DNA of 24,215 bases from a virus (lineage: Duplodnaviria; Caudoviricetes): the IMG/VR virus record IMGVR_UViG_3300009773_000011, positions 1 to 24,215 of that record; one strand, written 5' to 3'. The notes under the pieces are model-generated. The model worked only from the letters and a program-made list of their open reading frames with translations, did no database searches and was not told where the DNA came from. This document shows positions 2,412 through 24,215 of the stretch, in pieces. Numbering within the stretch: the first letter of the stretch is position 1; the number at the start of each line of letters is the position of its first letter. A program made the translations under genes and the position numbers.

Positions 2412-3760
2412 CAGAACCCCCCAAATTGGGCATCTGAAAAGACTGCCTCAGAGTTTTTCTTCCCCCTGATGCTGACTGGCGACGCAGACCCTGAAAATGT
2501 CATCGTCTTACCCTCGTAGTGGAGCGAGTAATGCCTGCCGTTCTGACCCCGCCTCGTTTTGGCAACCGAACAAATGATCCTGGGAGTCGTGTCAAAGTTC
2601 GGCGTGCCGTCCTCACTCGTCGGGGCCTTGTCTTTGAAGAGTTCAAGCACCACGTCGGCAAGTCTCCTGATGGAGCCTCCACCGAGGCCCCTGCCAGTTC
2701 CCACGTCGCCATGTCGCTGATTAGCAAGGGCAATTTCGGACATTTGGTTCAAGACAAGGAAGGCGCAACCGAGTTCGTTTTTCCATCTGCGAAGGGCAGC
2801 CGTCACCTGTCGGGCAGCGTCCAGTTCGTCTTTGAATCCTGCAACTGCCGTCAGGTAATCAAGCACCACCACGGCGGGAGATTCCGTCCTGATGGCTCTT
2901 TCGAGGTCGGCAACGGTGTAATCCCCGTCAATCACCCGGAATAGTCCCGCGTCGCGTTCCGTCAGCACATCAACGGCGCGCTTGTATTCCGGGGAATCGG
3001 ACTTGATAGCCTCCAATATCTCCATCTCGTTCAGGCCGATGATGGGCATGAGCCTCCGAAGATTGACCTGGTAGGCCGGCATGTCCAAACTCACAAACAG
3101 GACTTTCCTTCCGACCTCTTGCAAATACGTATCAACCGCCTTGAGCGCGAGGCTCGTTTTCATGCTCCCCTCTCCGCCGACAAGGGAAAGGATCTCGCCG
3201 GGGAGAATACCGCCCCCCATGTCCCAATCGACGGCATCAATACCCGTGCGGAAAACTGGCAGTCCGTCCCATGCCTTGACTTGCGCCTCGTAAGCCTCCT
3301 GATGTATCGACGGGTCAGACAGAGCAATCCGCTCCGATGCGGAGCATTCCCGAATGAGCCGTTGTGCTTCCTGTGTTACGTCGGTAATGGCTTTTTTCTC
3401 GCTCATGGCGAGGGCATATATCTCCCTTGCCCGCTCTGCCATGAGTCGCCTGACGGCCTTCTCCCTGACAATGGCAAGGTGCCTCTGGAAGGTCTGCAAT
3501 GTCGGGATAGCCTCGATGTAGGATGCAAGTTCTGACTGTCCAATCTTTATTTTCTGCGCCAAAATGACCTCATCAACGGCGTTGCCCCTCAAGGCTTCGA
3601 CCTGGACGGCGCGGAATACCTGACGGTGCCGAGTGTCGAAAAAGTCACTCTCTTCCAGCGTCCGGGAAGCCAAAGACAGACATGATGCATCAAGGAGGCA
3701 TCCCCCCAGGACTGCCCTTTCAGAGTCAAGGGACATTGGGATAGGACGTTCTTTGGTCAC
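2411..3760 (-). CDS. dnaB: DnaB-like replicative helicase
   Basis: N-domain SERAVLGGCLLD...DFFDTRHRQVF; C-domain TGIDAVD, Walker A GGEGSMKT, FVSLDM, Walker B VVLDYL, LNQM, AKTRRG; lies downstream of the initiator. Confidence 0.9.
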   Translation of the reverse strand: MTKERPIPMSLDSERAVLGGCLLDASCLSLASRTLEESDFFDTRHRQVFRAVQVEALRGNAVDEVILAQKIKIGQSELASYIEAIPTLQTFQRHLAIVREKAVRRLMAERAREIYALAMSEKKAITDVTQEAQRLIRECSASERIALSDPSIHQEAYEAQVKAWDGLPVFRTGIDAVDWDMGGGILPGEILSLVGGEGSMKTSLALKAVDTYLQEVGRKVLFVSLDMPAYQVNLRRLMPIIGLNEMEILEAIKSDSPEYKRAVDVLTERDAGLFRVIDGDYTVADLERAIRTESPAVVVLDYLTAVAGFKDELDAARQVTAALRRWKNELGCAFLVLNQMSEIALANQRHGDVGTGRGLGGGSIRRLADVVLELFKDKAPTSEDGTPNFDTTPRIICSVAKTRRGQNGRHYSLHYEGKTMTFSGSASPVSIRGKKNSEAVFSDAQFGGF

Positions 3761-4827
3761 GCTTCCACCTCCATGATGGCCTTGAATATCGGGTACGCCT
3801 GTTGCGGAACTACGGCGTTTCCGAGTGCCTTCAAACGCTTCGCCCTATTCGGTATGCCTGTGCCTACACGAGGCGGTTCGTAGGGGTATTGGGATTCCCC
3901 CATCAACGCCGGCCATCCGGGCCACGGCTCCGGTTCGTCGCAGTCGAGGTCAGTCCAGCCGAGGGGGAAGCCCATGAGGATTTCTACCCAAGCGGGATTT
4001 AAGGTTCCGTTGGCCGCCGTTTGCAAATCCAGTCCACCGTCTCCATGCCGACACGGGCCACCATTTGCATTCTGTCGTTTCGGCGTCGGCCACATCTTCG
4101 CGACCGCCGTCGCCAGTCCATCGCCGCTGTTCTCGCTCAGTCCGCGGCGGTTGTAGTTTCCGTGGACGCAGGGTGTAGGCCACAAGCCACCTTCACAGCG
4201 TTCGGAAGCTGGCTCAAGTGCGGGCGCTCCCTGCTCAAGAAATGCGTATCCCCGTTCGCCCCTTTGTAATCTCTCTGCGAAGGCGTGGGCCACATCGCTC
4301 CTGACGCCGATGACGAAGAGTCTTTCCCTTTTGTGGGGCGCACCAAATGCAGCAGCTGGAAGGACGAAAGCCCAGACTTTGTATCCTTCGTCCTCCATTC
4401 CGGCTTGCACGGTATCGAGGGCGAGATTGACCGCTCCACGCACGTTTTCAGCAAGGACGAAAGCGGGTCTGCACTCTGCGATGACTCGCAGCATTTCAAA
4501 CCAGAGTCCGGAGCGCTCCCCCGACAATCCCTTTTGCTTGCCTGCAACTGACAAATCTTGACAGGGGAAGCCTCCGTGAACAACGTCAATTGTTCCGTTG
4601 TAGTCGGCGGGGCATTTGAATCGATGGAAAGGGCTTCCTCCAAGCTCTCGCAGCGTTCGGTTGGTGAATCGCGTAATGTCTCCGTGATTCTCAATGCCCT
4701 GGAACCTCCTTTCAAGCACTTTAACGGCATACGGCTCTATCTCGCAGAATGCCACCGTCTCCATCCCTGCCCATTCAGCGGCGAGGTCTAAACCTCCTAT
4801 GCCGCTGAAGAGGGATAGCACCCTCAC
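3757..4827 (-). CDS. DNA (cytosine-5)-methyltransferase
   Basis: Motifs I SLFSGIGG, IV GFPCQ, VI ENV, VIII PHKRERLF, IX-like LNPAWVEILMGFP, X LKALGNAVVP. Confidence 0.95.
   Translation of the reverse strand: MRVLSLFSGIGGLDLAAEWAGMETVAFCEIEPYAVKVLERRFQGIENHGDITRFTNRTLRELGGSPFHRFKCPADYNGTIDVVHGGFPCQDLSVAGKQKGLSGERSGLWFEMLRVIAECRPAFVLAENVRGAVNLALDTVQAGMEDEGYKVWAFVLPAAAFGAPHKRERLFVIGVRSDVAHAFAERLQRGERGYAFLEQGAPALEPASERCEGGLWPTPCVHGNYNRRGLSENSGDGLATAVAKMWPTPKRQNANGGPCRHGDGGLDLQTAANGTLNPAWVEILMGFPLGWTDLDCDEPEPWPGWPALMGESQYPYEPPRVGTGIPNRAKRLKALGNAVVPQQAYPIFKAIMEVEA
4137..4730 (-). CDS. Overlapping +1-frame ORF inside the C5-MTase (beta-subunit-like, possibly vestigial)
   Basis: 197 open codons containing MWPTPSQRDYKG...QLPNAVK, a homologue of the two WPTP modules read in the main frame. 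Confidence 0.45.
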   Translation of the reverse strand: MPLKCLKGGSRALRITETLRDSPTERCESLEEALSIDSNAPPTTTEQLTLFTEASPVKICQLQASKRDCRGSAPDSGLKCCESSQSADPLSSLLKTCVERSISPSIPCKPEWRTKDTKSGLSSFQLLHLVRPTKGKDSSSSASGAMWPTPSQRDYKGANGDTHFLSRERPHLSQLPNAVKVACGLHPASTETTTAAD

Positions 4828-8357: not shown

Positions 8358-8582
8358 CTAAGAACGCTTCGAGACTGCCCCCGTGGTTTCGGGAGGGTTT
8401 GTGTCTATCAGGTCAGATATACGGCATCCGTAGATAGACGCGTAACTACCCAGAGATTCCAGAACAACCCCCTGCCGTCCCGCCTCATGCCTCCAGACGG
8501 TGTTGAGGGAATATCCCATCTTTTCGGCTACTTCTGCGAGGGTCATCCGGTTCTTTTTGCGCCACTCCTTAAGCCTAAGCAT
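8358..8582 (-). CDS. cro: Cro-like XRE-family HTH regulator
   Basis: LKEWRKKNRMTLAEVAEKMGYSLNTVWRHEAG; RBS AAAGGAGG; first gene of the early operon. Confidence 0.85.
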   Translation of the reverse strand: MLRLKEWRKKNRMTLAEVAEKMGYSLNTVWRHEAGRQGVVLESLGSYASIYGCRISDLIDTNPPETTGAVSKRS

Positions 8583-8607
8583 CTACACCACCTCCTTTCC
8601 GATGTCT

Positions 8608-8636
8608 ATAGTAATGGACGTAATCGGTAGAAACAA
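8608..8636 (-). promoter_or_regulatory. Early (cro) promoter
   Basis: Minus strand TTGTTT (8636-8631), 17 bp, TACTAT (8613-8608); an operator-like 15-mer lies in the spacer. Confidence 0.6.
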
Positions 8637-8720
8637 TAGGTCTTAAGTCCTATCTTCTACGGAAATGGTGTAAGTTGTTATACCGAAGAGGATTATTGAT
8701 ATTTGCTACGTATAACGTAG
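8616..8720. promoter_or_regulatory. Three operator-like 15-mers of the divergent switch
   Basis: Palindrome CTACGTATAACGTAG (8706-8720) and degenerate GGACGTAATCGGTAG (8616-8630) and CTACGGAAATGGTGT (8657-8671). Confidence 0.5.
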
Positions 8721-8723
8721 ACT
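8696..8723 (+). promoter_or_regulatory. Repressor-direction promoter, probably giving a leaderless mRNA
   Basis: TTGATA (8696-8701), 16 bp, TAGACT (8718-8723), with ATG only 6 nt downstream and no RBS. Confidence 0.45.
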
Positions 8724-8729
8724 TTAAGC

Positions 8730-8819
8730 ATGGGGAAACTATTCGGGGATCGTCTAAAAGACGCAATTGCTGACATCGGCGGAATGGTATCATCTCGGCG
8801 GCATCAACGACATGATTGA
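8730..8819 (+). pseudogene. Truncated CI-like repressor stub
   Basis: MGKLFGDRLKDA resembles XRE helix 1, is divergent from cro, then runs into the palindrome array and stops at codon 30. Confidence 0.6.
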
Positions 8820-8926
8820 GTCCTTCGAAGATTCCGAATAACTCAGACGGTGACGAATTGTCACCGCTTGACCATTTTGCTGATGTCCACGAGATGGTCA
8901 GACGGTTACATTTTGTAACCGCTTGA
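8761..8926. repeat. Gap-free array of six 27-30 bp palindromic/degenerate elements of three types
   Basis: Units at 8761-8788, 8789-8816, 8818-8844, 8843-8871, 8870-8899 and 8898-8926; see findings. Confidence 0.8.
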
Positions 8927-8930
8927 GACG

Positions 8931-8960
8931 ATAAAAGCCCCCCACCTTTCGGCAGGGGGC
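8931..8960 (-). terminator. Intrinsic terminator ending the late/lysis transcript
   Basis: GCCCCCTGCC-GAAA-GGTGGGGGGC followed by TTTTAT on the minus strand. Confidence 0.85.
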
Positions 8961-8992
8961 AACCCAGGGGGGAGGGGAGGGTTAGCGGATTA

Positions 8993-9057
8993 AACATGAG
9001 GGGTATCTACCCCCCATGTTGACCACGGAAGTCACCACGGAAGTCACCACGGAAGTT
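8993..9057. repeat. 28-bp palindrome followed by 12-bp tandem repeat x3
   Basis: AACATGAGGGGTA-TC-TACCCCCCATGTT (8993-9020); ACCACGGAAGTC twice then ACCACGGAAGTT (9022-9057). Confidence 0.9.
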
Positions 9058-9815: not shown

Positions 9816-10014
9816 CTTCACGGATTTTTCCGACCTCCTTTCGGACACGCTGGTCAAGTTGATTGACCCTCTGTTCCATCTGCTCTATCTCGTATTTGAT
9901 ATATTCCAACTGCTCATCGACAGGGTTTGTCGGCACAGGCTTATACAGCCACCATGCCAACAGGCCCCCGGCGAGTATGGCTAAAAATATAAGCAACCAC
10001 TTATATTTGGTCAT
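9700..10014 (-). CDS. Inner-membrane spanin-like (Rz-like) protein
   Basis: N-terminal TM WLLIFLAILAGGLLAWWLY then coiled coil; at the end of the lysis region and overlapped by the next gene. Confidence 0.65.
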   Translation of the reverse strand: MTKYKWLLIFLAILAGGLLAWWLYKPVPTNPVDEQLEYIKYEIEQMEQRVNQLDQRVRKEVGKIREDVKKEISTLTRDDVADALNAELSEFRRLDISPGGVINF

Positions 10015-11075
10015 GATGCCACCTCCTGTAATGCCATCTGTTTCGCTTCCTTGCCCATTTCCCGCAATGCGCCCTTTGTGCGGTGGTAGGCAATGTTCAC
10101 ATAATCGGGGTCTTTCTCAATGCCGAGATACCTGAACCCTTCCTGTAACGCCCCTACAAGGGTTGACCCACTTCCGCAGAAGGGATCTAAAACAACGCCG
10201 TCCGGTGGAGTCACAAGCCTGCAAAGGTAACGCATGAGGGCAAGGGGCTTCACGGTGGGATGGTTATTTTGTCTTGGTGTACCCTTCCATCTTTCCACAA
10301 GGGTTTTGCTTCCATCTTCCCTAACTAATGTCCTTCCACGGGTATCAAGACCTTGTAGGTTGTCGTCAGGTAGTGGCAACCCCTCACACCCCATGTTCCG
10401 CTCACTCTTGCTCGCCTTGGCACAGTAGAAGAAGCGGGAGGTATCGTTAGGGAACCCACTCACCACCTCGTCACTTCCATCGTGGATGAGGTTGGCGGGG
10501 AAACGACCCAAGGTTACTGGGTAAACTTTCCCGCCATTTCGTGGCCCACAAATAGGGACAGGCCCTAACGCACCATCTCGCCCCTGCTGCTGCTCTCTAC
10601 CCTCGCCTACAATGACCCTGCACCCGTCAATGTTTATCGCCCCTGTACCGTGCTTCAATACGTTCTCTGCAACGGTTCCCTTGAGGGGCTTACGTGCCAT
10701 GATGATGGGTTCCCATGCGGGCTTGAGGGCTGTACCATAACCTTGCCATTCACCCTTGAGGTTGTGTGACTTTGGGAACCCGCTCCCATATACCCACATC
10801 AGCGTGTCCCGGATATCCCATCCTGCGTCCTCTATAGCAACGGCAAGCCTGTGAAACGTCCTTGTGCCTCCAAAGGCTAAAAGGTGACACCCCGGCTTCG
10901 CTATCCGTAACGCTTCCTGCCAAAAGACAACGCCCGGAATACCGTGGTCCCAATCCTTACCCATGAAGGAAAGTCCGTATGGCGGGTCTGTAACGATGGA
11001 GTCAATACTGTTATCCTCTAACCCCTGCATTGCATGGAGGCAGTCATCGTTAATGATGGTGTTGTAGTCCATCAC
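10011..11075 (-). CDS. DNA amino-methyltransferase (N6-A/N4-C, beta class)
   Basis: N-terminal TDPPY, C-terminal HPTVKP and LDPFCGSGST. Confidence 0.93.
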   Translation of the reverse strand: MMDYNTIINDDCLHAMQGLEDNSIDSIVTDPPYGLSFMGKDWDHGIPGVVFWQEALRIAKPGCHLLAFGGTRTFHRLAVAIEDAGWDIRDTLMWVYGSGFPKSHNLKGEWQGYGTALKPAWEPIIMARKPLKGTVAENVLKHGTGAINIDGCRVIVGEGREQQQGRDGALGPVPICGPRNGGKVYPVTLGRFPANLIHDGSDEVVSGFPNDTSRFFYCAKASKSERNMGCEGLPLPDDNLQGLDTRGRTLVREDGSKTLVERWKGTPRQNNHPTVKPLALMRYLCRLVTPPDGVVLDPFCGSGSTLVGALQEGFRYLGIEKDPDYVNIAYHRTKGALREMGKEAKQMALQEVAS

Positions 11076-18585: not shown

Positions 18586-21500
18586 TTACTTCTTGCGCCA
18601 GTAAAGAACATCCGATACTCTGAAATCCTTGTCGTCCCGCCACCAATCGTATAACCCTTCCGCCGTGATCTGTGTCTGTCTTGACGGGAACGGGGTGATG
18701 TAACCCGCCGCTTCGTAACCTGACTTCAGAATGTCAAGCCACTCGTCAGAATCATCCCACTCTATGACGGCCTCCTTAACGTCCTTTATAAGGTTGCCCA
18801 GGCTTTTGGTGACTTCCGACACAGGAGTGAACCTGTAGTTGTAATTCAGCAAGGCATAGGATGAAATATCTCTAACGCCCACTACCGGGGAAGCGATGTA
18901 CCCCAACATTTCAAGAGCCGCCCAGGTAAGCGGGTCTTCGTCATCATCCGGCCCCCTCATGGTCATAAGTTCACCCAACAGGGCGGGAGCGATAACCAGA
19001 TAGAAAGCCGCCGCCGCAACCTTCATGGGCTGTACACCCTTCAATTGGGCATACTTGACCTCTGAATACATGAGGTTATAAAGGACGCTGAAGAAGGAGT
19101 AATACATGGTGAACAGTTTCTGAAACTCCCCGAACTGGTCGCCCCTCTGGACTGCCGCCAATGAATAGGTATGTCCTGATCCCTGTGACTTCCTGACCAT
19201 CCCGTCTGCGTATGCCACAGCCCTGTCGCCGGATATCCCCTCACTTAAGGCTTTGGTATAAGCGGCCTGCCATGTCGGGACCGATACCATCATGTCAGCC
19301 CAACCTATGGCATGGAGTGCCGCCACGTTGACCTTCCTGACCAGTCCGTCCCTGCCTATCATCCTTTCAAGAGCATCTTTGGCATCCCTGTCGAACCCTT
19401 CCTTACGGTGTCTCATGAAGTCCGATTTAGACAGGGTATCGTTCCACATATCTTGCGGGTTGCTCATGAAATCGACGAGGGATATAACCATCTGCCCCGT
19501 GCCCACAAGGTGAGCCGAAGTGAAGTAACCCAGGAACTGCGCCACGATAACGGATGCTTTGAACCCCATAGCAACTATCGTCGCTCCGTATCGTGCCTTC
19601 TTGATGGCGGCGGCAAAGGGGTCAAAGAGATCCCGTCTTGTTGACGCAACCGCCTTGTGCCATGAAACGAACTGTCTGTACCCGTCCAGACCGAAAGCGT
19701 CTATAACGGCATCCCTTACCCTGTCGTGCCTGAGTATCTTCCCTATGTCTATGACTGCCTTCCGGAACGCAAGGTCGTGAAGCATGTCTGCAAGGTGTCT
19801 GTTGAGAACGTTGAACCCCAACCTCAAGGGAAGTCCAGTTGTTTCAACCGCTTCCTTCGTGTGCCCCTGATTCGTGTGTCCGAAAGCGGAATACCCCTTG
19901 TTGAAACTCTCATGCAGTTTCTTGTCGGACAGTTGAGCCGCCTTGAATGACTGGTTGCTGTCATACGCTATGGGGTAATACCCACCCCTTAACACTCCGT
20001 ACTTCGTCTTTACGGGAAGTACTTCCTTCTTTCCCGGGCGGAATCCCGCCGTTTCGACGTGCAATTGTTCAATGGCAGGCCAGAATGTCTCAAGGTGGTC
20101 CCATATATCCTGAACGACCTGCCAGTCCCGTTCATCCAGAATATCAAGGACTTCCCATACCTGCCGTTCCGTCCATCCCCATGTACCTTTGGGATTCAAG
20201 ACCCTCTCCCTGTTCTCTTTCGCTCCCATGTTCAAAGCAAGGGTAAGAACATCCTCTTTGGTCAACTCCTGCCCTATCGCCGCAAAGTGCCGTCTCCGAT
20301 GCTGCAGGTCGTGCCACTCATCATCCGAATAGACGGACAATATCTCGCGGAGTTTCCCGTAAGCCTGTTCCTTCAGAAGGGTCTCCGTCTGGTCGGCATC
20401 GACGAACACCTGATGAATGTACTCCTGCCACGGGCCTGTATCCTTGAAATCATCAAGTACCCTGCAAAGGAACTCAATCTTCAGGTGCCATGCGTTGAAT
20501 GCGCCCAGCCAGTCTTTTAACTGTTGCCCTTTCGCAGGATGCAATGGACGCTTAGGTTTGCCCTTTTCCCCTATCGCCTTTTCTTTTGAGGCCACAAGCA
20601 TATCTACCGTAGCCTCAAGGTCTCTTGCCGTCTTGCTTGTGAGAAGTTTTCCCTTCAAACGTCCCAGGTGGATGATGTTCGCCACGGCATTCGCAAATTC
20701 ATGCAGTTCCTGAACGGTCATATCCTTTACATTGGTCTTGTATGACTCCTGCCTTAACCGTTCCGGAATAGCCGCTACCAGACTCTCGTCTTCCTGTCCG
20801 GAGATCCATGCGCTCAACTTCTTTATCTCACTCAGTTTTTTGTCGGACAAACGTTTCATTGACACCCTTGCGAACAAAGCGTCCAACTGGTCAAGGTATT
20901 CTATGGGCAATCCTTTGGGAGGTTTCTTCTCTAACCCCCTTAGTTTCTTGGAAATCTTGTCGATAGCCGCCTTTTCCTTCATAACCGTTATTGCCATCTG
21001 GTGATTGACCAACTGCTGTTCCTTGAATCCAGCCGCCGCTTCATAGTCGCCCTTCTCCATTGCCCTGAACGCATCCCTGATAGCCTTCTGCTCAAGGCGG
21101 AAGTACCTTCCCACATTCAGTTTATCGGGGTGCATGGAGGCAACCGCTGATTCTATGGCAAGTCTTACCGCTTCCTTGCGCCTTAGCGCATCTGCCCTTT
21201 CTATCTTTATATTGTCCTTTTCAACACCTTGCGCTATCTGGCGGAGAATGCTTATCTCCGCAATGATGGTATCAATACGTGTCCCGTTCCTTATCTCACG
21301 TTCCGCCTGACCAGCCATGTCTCCGCCCTCTATCATGGCATTCCAGTCAGATACCCTTGCTTCGGTCAGTTCCTTGATCTTCTGTCTTTTAGGCTGTGCT
21401 TCCAGAATATCCCTTATCATCTGTTCGCCGGAATTGTAGCCAAAGAACTCCGCCGCCATGTCAGCGTTGTACGCTCCCTTTTGGGACATTATCTTTTTCG

Positions 21501-24215
21501 GGAGCCTGTTCGCCACATCCTCCCCGTAAGCCATGACGATGACCGCACGGTTCAGTTTAATCCCGCCATCTGATACAGGTCTGGACATTTCTTCCAATGC
21601 CCTGTAAACAGGCATGTTCTCAACTTCCCGTGTCACCTCTTTACGGGCATCCTTCAACTGCTGTTTCTTGAGGTTCTTCCATGCCTTCTTTGTTGTCCTC
21701 ATGGCCTTATTGAACAGGGAACGCCATGCCTCTTCGTGAGCCTCGTCAGCGGTAGCCCGTTGACCCTCAATAACATCGTCAGGAAGCATGTCCGTTCCTA
21801 TCGCCTCAAGGAAGGAATCATACCTGTTGCGGGTCTCCGCCTCCGTGATCTCTTCTTCTGTCGCAAGCATCCGGTCAAATACCCCGCGTATATCGTCGTT
21901 CATATCCACATTAAGGTAACGAACATGAGCATAGATGCTTGTGAGCCACTTCTTGAACGATTCAAAGGCTTTACGGAGAGCGGATGACGGAGCGTTCCCT
22001 TCCATTAGATATGCCTCAAAGCCACGGGCAAACTTCTCGTGCTGTTCATTGGTCAGGGGTTTCCCTTTTTCCGCACCGAGCCAGTCAAGAATAGTCTCGT
22101 AATCCCTTACGACCCATGCAGGAGCGTTCTTCTGTCGGGCTATCTGTTCAATATCCTTCAGGAACAAATGCCCTGATTCATGGAGGAAGGTGGACATATC
22201 CGATGCCTGAATGAGGCGTATGATAGCCCTCGTATCAGACAGGTCGATGCTGCCACGGTTCTCCTGATAGTACGTGTTCAGTATCTGTATAGCCTCGTCA
22301 TCGAAAATAACGTAGTTGTAGGAGCCTTCACCCTTTGAGCGTGAAGTCCCGTCAAGGTACTTGATACCCTTGATGCCGAGGGAGTTGAGGTATTTGGATG
22401 CGGATTCTTCTATGTTGGGTGTTTGTAACCTATAGGGATTACGTTCATCTTTCCCCAGTTCCCTGTAAAGAGACTGCCCTGATAAGTTTTCTCCAGGCTT
22501 GCCTCCCCGAAGTCTTGCCACATCTTCCTTATTTAAACGGAATGAAAAACCATCAGCAGTATCAAGGAAATATTTAACAAATTCTCCGTCATCCTCTATT
22601 CGGAGCGTTGACCCGTTGTTTAATTTTTCCCCATTTACAGGTGGTTCCATCTCTTTTTCTGAATAATTAAGAGATGCCAACGCTTTCCTTACATTCTCAC
22701 TCTGCTCGCTCAACGGCTTATCCCAATCAAGCAGGACATCATCGTTGGGGATATCCACCTCGTAGAGTTGACCCGATTCTGTTAATTCAAATCCTGATTC
22801 TTGAAGATATTTCAATTCCTTTTTTATTGATTTTAAATTCTCTTCCTTGTCCATTAGGACACCTAATTCGTATGACTCAGGAGAGTGTGTATTAGGGTTC
22901 TTTATGGCATTATTAATATCTTGTAAAGCCTTGCGATAATTGAACTCATGGTCTTTGAGGATGTTTAAAGAAGATTCTTCATCGCCGTCTAAATTAAACC
23001 AAGAAGCACCATCAGTGTTTTCCTTGAACGCCCACCCATTATTTGTATGTTGGTATAAATCGCCGTTCTCATTCTTAAGCCAAAACGATTCTTCTTGTAA
23101 TCTTTCCCTATACCACTCCGCTACATCCTTCTCCCCTGCGAAGTACAGTCCCCATCCGTATGCCTGTGCACCCTCGCCCGTGCCGATGTGGTCAAGCGTG
23201 AACTTGTCGAACCTGTGTGGCGAACCGTGATAGGCAGGCTGATGATAAATATTCGCATCGTCCGGGTTCCACGTTCCCTCGTTGTTGATGGATTTGATCT
23301 GCGTGGGGGAGAAGACGATATATTCGGTTTCAACACCACCATCTGTGATGATTACTCCGTCGTATCCAAGGTTTTTCATGGTATCCTGATTTACCCCACT
23401 CATGGGAATATCCTTACGCTCAAAGATGTAGGGATTTTGCATTGTTAAATAGACTGAGTAAACCTGTCTGCCCCAGCCATCCCCACGTTTTTGCTGTAGG
23501 TTAATATACGTGTTTGCCCTATCTGGATTAGGAGTGAAGTAAAATCCTCTCCCTGCTTGTCCTTGTTTCTGTTTGTTGGTATCAAATATTTCTATACCTT
23601 CTGTAGCACTCCCGTGATACACCACCAACGGCTTGCCCTCTTCGTCAACGACCTTCGAGTCACCGAACCATTTGTAGAAGTTGTCGTTCAGTTCTATCGT
23701 GCCATCCTGCCCGTAGGTGATGCCGTCCTGTGAATACTGCTTTACCCGGTCGCCCACCAGGAAGCGGAACAGTTCATTATCGTCCTCCGCACCCGTGAAG
23801 TTCTCTAATAACTGTACTGCTTTGTCGAGGTGCAATCCGCCTTCCTTAGCAAACATCTTGGGACCTATCGCCTTACGTAACCTCCGCGCTTCTTCTATAC
23901 CGAAGGTGGCGACAATGGACTTGTAATCAAGTCTTCCGTTCTTCCGTATCACATCAAGTGCATCTTTACGCCTTGTTTTATCCTCTTCCATAAGAGAATT
24001 GATTTCCTCAAGGTAAGCCGCTTCCGCCTGTTTGGATGATTCCGTATCGGTTACTACAACACCCTGTGTACTCTCCTGTGCCACCTCAAAGTCGGCGGGA
24101 TCAAAGCGTACCCCTTCCGCATCCGCTATTTCAGGACGTATCTTCGTTCCCGTCTTCTCCGTCAGTTTCGGAGAATAACCAGTTATGCTCAAGCCCACTT
24201 TTGCAAGCCATCTCA
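18586..24215 (-). CDS. Giant polyvalent virion/ejection protein, 5' end outside window (>1870 aa)
   Basis: Frame is open to the window edge. ART-like domain 1 (WFGDSKVVDEEGKPLVVYHGS...GFYFT...GYDGV..EYIVF, ~23245-23680); ART-like domain 2 (AYHGSPH...GWGLYFA...GIKYLD...NYVIFD, ~22270-23240); zincin-like HESGH...HEKFARGFE (~21860-22260); long helical C-terminus. Confidence 0.88.
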   Translation of the reverse strand, partial: RWLAKVGLSITGYSPKLTEKTGTKIRPEIADAEGVRFDPADFEVAQESTQGVVVTDTESSKQAEAAYLEEINSLMEEDKTRRKDALDVIRKNGRLDYKSIVATFGIEEARRLRKAIGPKMFAKEGGLHLDKAVQLLENFTGAEDDNELFRFLVGDRVKQYSQDGITYGQDGTIELNDNFYKWFGDSKVVDEEGKPLVVYHGSATEGIEIFDTNKQKQGQAGRGFYFTPNPDRANTYINLQQKRGDGWGRQVYSVYLTMQNPYIFERKDIPMSGVNQDTMKNLGYDGVIITDGGVETEYIVFSPTQIKSINNEGTWNPDDANIYHQPAYHGSPHRFDKFTLDHIGTGEGAQAYGWGLYFAGEKDVAEWYRERLQEESFWLKNENGDLYQHTNNGWAFKENTDGASWFNLDGDEESSLNILKDHEFNYRKALQDINNAIKNPNTHSPESYELGVLMDKEENLKSIKKELKYLQESGFELTESGQLYEVDIPNDDVLLDWDKPLSEQSENVRKALASLNYSEKEMEPPVNGEKLNNGSTLRIEDDGEFVKYFLDTADGFSFRLNKEDVARLRGGKPGENLSGQSLYRELGKDERNPYRLQTPNIEESASKYLNSLGIKGIKYLDGTSRSKGEGSYNYVIFDDEAIQILNTYYQENRGSIDLSDTRAIIRLIQASDMSTFLHESGHLFLKDIEQIARQKNAPAWVVRDYETILDWLGAEKGKPLTNEQHEKFARGFEAYLMEGNAPSSALRKAFESFKKWLTSIYAHVRYLNVDMNDDIRGVFDRMLATEEEITEAETRNRYDSFLEAIGTDMLPDDVIEGQRATADEAHEEAWRSLFNKAMRTTKKAWKNLKKQQLKDARKEVTREVENMPVYRALEEMSRPVSDGGIKLNRAVIVMAYGEDVANRLPKKIMSQKGAYNADMAAEFFGYNSGEQMIRDILEAQPKRQKIKELTEARVSDWNAMIEGGDMAGQAEREIRNGTRIDTIIAEISILRQIAQGVEKDNIKIERADALRRKEAVRLAIESAVASMHPDKLNVGRYFRLEQKAIRDAFRAMEKGDYEAAAGFKEQQLVNHQMAITVMKEKAAIDKISKKLRGLEKKPPKGLPIEYLDQLDALFARVSMKRLSDKKLSEIKKLSAWISGQEDESLVAAIPERLRQESYKTNVKDMTVQELHEFANAVANIIHLGRLKGKLLTSKTARDLEATVDMLVASKEKAIGEKGKPKRPLHPAKGQQLKDWLGAFNAWHLKIEFLCRVLDDFKDTGPWQEYIHQVFVDADQTETLLKEQAYGKLREILSVYSDDEWHDLQHRRRHFAAIGQELTKEDVLTLALNMGAKENRERVLNPKGTWGWTERQVWEVLDILDERDWQVVQDIWDHLETFWPAIEQLHVETAGFRPGKKEVLPVKTKYGVLRGGYYPIAYDSNQSFKAAQLSDKKLHESFNKGYSAFGHTNQGHTKEAVETTGLPLRLGFNVLNRHLADMLHDLAFRKAVIDIGKILRHDRVRDAVIDAFGLDGYRQFVSWHKAVASTRRDLFDPFAAAIKKARYGATIVAMGFKASVIVAQFLGYFTSAHLVGTGQMVISLVDFMSNPQDMWNDTLSKSDFMRHRKEGFDRDAKDALERMIGRDGLVRKVNVAALHAIGWADMMVSVPTWQAAYTKALSEGISGDRAVAYADGMVRKSQGSGHTYSLAAVQRGDQFGEFQKLFTMYYSFFSVLYNLMYSEVKYAQLKGVQPMKVAAAAFYLVIAPALLGELMTMRGPDDDEDPLTWAALEMLGYIASPVVGVRDISSYALLNYNYRFTPVSEVTKSLGNLIKDVKEAVIEWDDSDEWLDILKSGYEAAGYITPFPSRQTQITAEGLYDWWRDDKDFRVSDVLYWRKK

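Follow-up and report, generated by a model that had tools for sequence, protein, structure and literature searches.

Why should a phage carry a gap-free run of operator-like palindromes beside its cro-cI switch, and does this run stand, as a preliminary description of the DNA held, in place of the lysogeny module? We examined both questions in what we call the window, the whole stretch of 24,215 nucleotides analysed here. It comes from a phage of bioreactor, landfill and groundwater communities that was found in many runs, and its record is about 55% complete, so that about 45% of the genome is missing.

Results

Six abutting units form the array

The array consists of six abutting units at 8767-8925, five of them dyads (centres 8802.5, 8831, 8857, 8884.5 and 8912, with 9-11 of 14 pairs each) and one a half unit, and neighbouring core units overlap by 0-1 base. 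From left to right these are A1 (8767-8789), a dinD-type site without its left arm; A2 (8788-8817), also of dinD type; B (8818-8844), a rhuM-type site whose right half belongs to the canonical CGGAA class and whose left half is divergent; C1 (8844-8870), a Bro-N clade site of the GTGAC class; A3 (8870-8899), a dinD-type site with halves that resemble different gene alleles (nearest L220 and L187); and C2 (8899-8925), a Bro-N clade site of the GTTAC class. On recheck the palindromic units were recovered at the places first described, and so were the 24/29 identity between C1 and C2 and the inconsistent frames of the unit peptides. The first unit stands in part: A1 is indeed an armless dinD-type unit, but it has only 6/15 pairs, and the first seven bases once assigned to it (8760-8766) are cI sequence.

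Shuffled controls, which had been suggested as a check, set the array apart. Its region holds five dyads of at least 9/14 pairs, against a mean of 0.75 in dinucleotide shuffles, of which only 1 in 2000 reaches five; compared with other 170-bp stretches of the window it is joint densest at 9/14 (the other lying near 4640-4820) and sole densest at 10/14. An assembly artefact is ruled out by contigs from other runs, of which X9 and X10 span the cI-A1 junction and X7 the whole array, with zero differing bases. The statement that no continuous ORF explains the array has to be reworded, since a 115-codon open frame on the minus strand (8650-8997) does span it; what holds is that this frame has no Pfam or PHROG match and that relatives with other left flanks have different sequence in place of its left part, and we reject a coding role for it. 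A single decayed gene, the explanation that the preliminary description had set against its own, is rejected as well: colinearity with a single coding sequence was not found, three families alternate in inconsistent frames, and the gene remnant is confined to 8730-8766.

A deletion scar separates the array from a cI remnant

On the left, a cro-like HTH gene (8358-8582, minus strand; Pfam HTH_26/HTH_3) encodes the same protein that lies beside an intact cI in the related locus L003. The cro-cI intergenic control region follows (8583-8729), and the 170 bases upstream of the cI start differ from L003 at one base. Next is the remnant of a cI-like repressor gene, codons 1-12 (8730-8766, plus strand), with the deletion junction after 8766. 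In L003 the same start opens an intact repressor, a 172-aa HTH_3 protein that is followed directly by a four-unit array, whereas the window retains the first 37 bases of the gene, fused at cI codon 12 to the armless A1. Judged against L003, the left end of the array is a deletion scar, at which cI lost most of its length and A1 its left arm. A search with the intact cI protein returned distant HTH proteins only. In a further locus, L292, read against the L003 protein, an in-frame internal cI deletion lies about 150 bases upstream of C1, joining the first ~17 codons to the C-terminal end and leaving the array intact. Because the same array stands behind an intact cI in L003 and beside an independent cI deletion in L292, it is no substitute for the lysogeny module, and on this point the preliminary description was mistaken. 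From the comparison of these loci, the array is a resident cassette beside a terminator, and the loss of the repressor is a separate and repeated event.

The terminator-like hairpin (8937-8960, minus strand) has a 10-pair stem and a T tail, is kept in all relatives shown, and would stop lysis-side transcription just short of the array. Farther right, positions 8993-9054 hold a 13-pair dyad (8993-9020) and then 12-base repeats, present in different numbers in different relatives; this stretch could be an origin, a packaging site or a regulatory site. Elsewhere the window encodes a 1870-aa polyvalent protein with two ART-PolyVal domains (18586-24198) and two DNA methyltransferases (3757-4827 and 10011-11075), and on this basis further counter-defence genes are present in the phage.

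Palindromes inside bacterial dinD, rhuM and Bro-N genes

The preliminary description had pointed to likenesses of the units to DinD, RhuM and Bro-N proteins. We picked gene sets by protein family alone (PF13310, NF008573, PF02498 and PF10543) from samples of two phyla. In 24/28 rhuM, 12/12 dinD and 26/30 Bro-N matches, the gene has its strongest 13-pair dyad at the same fixed codon position (the anchor motif is absent in 5 rhuM and 5 dinD loci). When the three gene families were compared with synonymous recodings, their DNA symmetry came to 234 vs 150±6, 201 vs 144±5 and 151 vs 91±5 pairs, values reached by 0/2000 recodings; the symmetry of the gene DNA exceeds what the encoded peptide requires. 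Across 54 rhuM sites ten arm positions are paired in 42-54 of the 54 genes, with 2-4 base-pair types each, and the centre is poorly paired. One locus (L245, genome G307) was omitted from the site and covariation analyses. The genes themselves are patchy, with rhuM in 30/81 and dinD in 13/101 genomes of one phylum. A codon-registered palindrome is also present in bacterial ORF6N genes (L251-L267), with repeated copies in L264 and L266.

Four array units score like the gene sites

Matrices built from these genes (the mis-anchored L180 was dropped from site scoring) place four units at the top of ~48,000 window positions and within the range of the genes: A3 (37.1, rank 1), A2 (26.2, where the leave-one-out range of gene sites is 13-44), C1 (26.2, rank 1) and C2 (25.9). 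A1, clipped by the deletion, scores 14.9 with the DinD matrix and ranks 6th of 48,372 positions. Unit B as a whole scores 10.2 against 10.3 for the best chance site (rank 2 of 48,378), and its right half is identical at 12/12 bases to the rhuM site of L154. The families first named were well chosen, A-type units matching the dinD site, B, mainly by its right half, the rhuM site and C-type units the Bro-N clade site. Moreover, C1 is 23/27 identical to the site of L222 and C2 22/27 identical to that of L230, so that what had been taken for a compensatory change between them corresponds to two separate gene alleles; the alleles compared come from sampled bacteria. Symmetry in the units is lower than in the gene sites (9-10/15 vs 13 pairs for DinD-type and 9/13 vs 11 for RhuM-type units), which could be drift. 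Short-word BLASTN, the search first proposed for the units, was less apt: nothing beyond chance matches came up when the array was compared with phages and plasmids or when three single units were compared with plasmids, the reason being that each unit is a variant rather than an exact copy. The array pattern was not found in species-representative genomes.

Site class tracks the predicted recognition helix

In the 54 rhuM genes the residue before an invariant His splits the site classes, which were drawn by hand, with zero exceptions (E/D 11/11, R/K 23/23, L/M/I/Q 17/17 and H/Y 3/3); from this set we had dropped 3 of 57 rows that have no more than 6 pairs and are probably misregistered, as well as 5 that lack the helix pattern. 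The five columns that best track site class reach z values of 11-18, against at most 8.6 for the others, by a permutation that ignores the tree. They are helix positions -8, -7, -5, -4 and -1, on the predicted recognition helix or where it begins; the columns between helix and site carry much less signal. Site class changes 17 times on a poorly resolved tree of the remaining columns, and the supported branches yield only 2-3 independent pairs, concordant and underpowered (p at least 0.25). The link between helix and site could come from ancestry, or from contact between the helix and the peptide that the palindrome encodes. The same trend is seen by eye in 22 genes of the Bro-N clade. Because palindrome type tracks the predicted DNA-reading helix residues across the 54 rhuM genes, we consider it likely that each protein binds the palindrome in its own gene.

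AlphaFold models of the Bro-N clade protein (pLDDT 86) and of the RhuM N-domain place the palindrome-encoded peptide in a short helix and the first wing strand, after a long helix which we infer to be the recognition helix; beyond the N-domain the RhuM model is weak (mean pLDDT 62). A fold search, made with the Bro-N model only (L211:1459-2301, PDC-S13-like), returned DdrC over the whole length (Foldseek E 2e-5; Z 10.6, rmsd 10.1, 210 aligned). Further resemblances are to the DNA-binding domain of Mbp1 (Z 7.4) and to Dachshund/Ski domains. DdrC of Deinococcus is described as a DNA-compacting protein, and the likeness is a lead to the biochemical activity of the Bro-N clade protein. For the three representative proteins we found no solved structures related by sequence.

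The cassette is modular and recurs

Pattern searches located the cassette at 7 loci in viral and 11 in metagenome sequences, not all of them distinct contigs. Ahead of the array lies an intact cI, a truncated cI, an attP-like tRNA end or, in L002, L284 and L290, a sigma/Q-like gene region rather than cI, and the left flank with its promoters varies among relatives. In L005/L286 and L285 we noted by eye tRNA-3'-end-like (attP-like) sequence between the repressor region and the array, ~150-200 bases upstream. In 11 of 12 comparisons the C1-A3-C2 core shares 95-100% identity with that of the window, L290 being the exception because its C2 has been swapped for a dinD-type unit, and over the next 500 bases identity is 66-90% in non-identical phages. 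Recent recombination could contribute to the conservation of the core. Comparing unit content among related phages, another check first proposed for this DNA, revealed that content does vary and that whole units are swapped: the upstream units differ as blocks, several rhuM classes among them. An extra palindromic unit of ~21 bases, abutting the array just upstream of a rhuM-type unit in L284, L005, L285 and L289, matches none of the three matrices and may point to a fourth protein family.

Sites of these types are also found in viruses at large. Half of the viral collection was scanned for the dinD pattern, giving 84 distinct sites, of which 8 fall within dinD, 13 within another long frame and 63 outside any long frame. 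The corresponding figures for sites within the cognate gene are 27 of 96 for the viral rhuM pattern and 3 of 13 for the Bro-N pattern, cognate calls being made by peptide patterns, with short flanks that may misplace some sites. A second unit lies within 160 bases of 13/69 non-cognate rhuM sites vs 0/27 cognate ones. In 401 bacterial genomes, a small sample, the dinD pattern occurs twice, both times in dinD-family genes, so that the bacterial side of this comparison consists of two sites in one phylum. Abutting mixed arrays are present in L128, L342, L431, L434 and L438, and from their unrelated flanks we conclude that such arrays recur in unrelated phages. At prophage rhuM genes we observed a dinD-type site at the gene start (L037), accompanied 54 bases upstream by a rhuM-type site in L009, L045 and L078; these operator-like positions suggest cross-regulation.

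Discussion

The protein families whose gene sites the units resemble appear in a defence context. All three families match PADLOC defence candidates (PDC-S05, S13 and S23), and one PDC-S05 RhuM protein lowered plating of T7 and T5 by ~1000-fold, a result for a single protein from a preprint (10.1101/2024.09.26.614923). Moreover, rhuM genes are reported to be enriched beside invertible genes, many of which are type I restriction loci (PMC9881135). In the BstA system, a defence protein with a KilA-N-like domain is suppressed by aba, which acts as high-copy DNA and is variant-specific (Owen et al. 2021, PMC8585504). It is from the PADLOC matches, the RhuM plating result and the behaviour of BstA and aba that our reading follows, and on balance we think it somewhat probable that the array is a multi-specificity decoy of double-stranded DNA that, by analogy with aba, holds host defence proteins inactive while the phage replicates. 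The predicted winged-helix (KilA-N/Bro-N-like) proteins would bind as dimers to the palindrome in their own genes, at a site that codes for the short helix together with the first wing strand and whose sequence tracks the preceding helix. The site-bound protein would be the inactive form, as with BstA and aba, and a replicating phage would multiply the sites and soak up the proteins, with families and specificity classes shared out among its units. On this view the deletion in cI happened separately and cut into the first unit. An operator serving autorepression alone is a poor fit, since its titration would raise expression of the defence genes and harm the phage.

The nature of the binding target could be questioned, since the units might instead act as hairpins, whether of RNA or of single-stranded DNA, which would make the array a structured mimic comparable to the pseudo-ToxI repeats that phage phiTE carries. 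The array strand does fold far better than shuffles (z -6.2), the rhuM sites with their poorly paired centre favour G-T over A-C mismatches (15 vs 5), and the stretch is present in an RNA library, with RNA-library contigs covering the array in X7 but not in X14, although contigs cannot show transcription. However, no wobble bias is seen in dinD (G-T 3, A-C 7) or Bro-N sites (6 and 5), and we read these mixed mismatch types as favouring double-stranded DNA over a hairpin. The tracking of site sequence with the predicted DNA-reading helix speaks for DNA as well, the terminator-like hairpin faces the array from the lysis side, the left flank and promoters differ among relatives, and an Rfam search of the array gave no credible family, its sole match being a microRNA far under the cut-off. 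We regard the hairpin explanation as unlikely.

An explanation that we hold to be unlikely to the same degree accepts that host proteins bind the sites, and has the phage recruit them for DNA packing, protection or gene control rather than neutralise a defence. The whole-length resemblance of the Bro-N clade model to DNA-compacting DdrC would suit such a role, as would the operator-like sites at prophage rhuM gene starts (L009, L037, L045 and L078). Yet the array keeps its place by the terminator whatever is upstream, and three families with several specificity classes suit broad cover of genes as patchy as rhuM and dinD.

A phage-encoded Bro-N/KilA-N antirepressor, lying in the missing part of the genome and using the units as operators or sinks, is slightly less probable again. 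Cognate genes do occur in viral contigs, about 45% of this genome is missing and the array adjoins the cro-cI switch; against this, the window gave no match to Bro-N or RhuM, and 4 related or array-bearing fragments gave none to Bro-N. It is also unlikely that a single protein reads site families of three kinds, and in L002, L284 and L290 the array is preceded by the sigma/Q-like region and not by cI. Least probable of all is neutral debris, whether decayed defence-gene fragments or palindromes self-repairing by template switching that pile up without function, for while the units are imperfect, A1 was clipped without loss of a phage found in many runs, and shared arrays could reflect recent recombination, each unit begins and ends with its palindrome and brings no gene sequence from either side, the three families take turns without a consistent frame, conservation is higher in the core than in its flank, and abutting mixed units recur in unrelated phages.

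If the array is a DNA decoy, it would represent a protein-free, DNA-only phage counter-defence that is invisible to gene-centred annotation, and the unexplained behaviour of BstA and aba would extend to far more proteins. Common as they are, RhuM, DinD and Bro-N genes lack a settled mechanism, and the array offers a predicted binding site per allele and a candidate natural inhibitor. More tentatively, we can imagine that RhuM, DinD and Bro-N proteins, probably with ORF6N, form a widespread defence class that carries its off-switch site in the codons of its own DNA-binding domain, site and helix co-evolving into many specificity classes, and that phages counter it with gene-free modular cassettes gained and swapped unit by unit, whose content records the defence alleles met; this broader proposal falls a little short of what we would call probable. 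Such arrays could also expose further protein families.

How does the array compare with known systems? REP/BIME elements and CRISPR are clustered short palindromes in non-coding DNA. We reject either identity for the array, as its six units differ, abut and have no constant repeat, spacer or linker, and each unit maps to a site in a coding gene. Operators can occupy coding DNA, lac O2 being an intragenic operator; to our knowledge none of the known intragenic operators lies in the codons of its reader's own DNA-binding domain and changes with its helix. The pseudo-ToxI repeats of phiTE and the RNA anti-CRISPRs are non-coding phage copies of the inhibitory or guide element of a host system, sometimes repeated. 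These mimics are RNA directed at one system, whereas for the array double-stranded DNA is favoured by the evidence, and three protein families are covered. In decoy transcription-factor sites, extra binding sites titrate a DNA-binding protein, but these are engineered (Gao et al. 2021, PMC8599769), unlike the phage array. In open full text we found no description of these intragenic palindromes or of arrays of them. The closest precedent for the inferred mechanism is aba, a short element that overlaps a KilA-N-like defence gene and, acting as DNA, suppresses the protein in trans at high copy (PMC8585504). However, aba is 63 bp long with terminal CCCGCC direct repeats, sits where its own bstA gene begins and gives protection to the cognate prophage (PMC8585504), whereas the array units are 27-30-bp palindromes from mid-gene of other families, stacked as six variants and with no cognate gene in the sequenced part. 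The array holds no terminal CCCGCC direct repeats, and it is flanked by a cI remnant and a terminator rather than overlapping the beginning of a cognate defence gene. Although its action is likely similar to that of aba, the array is no aba element.
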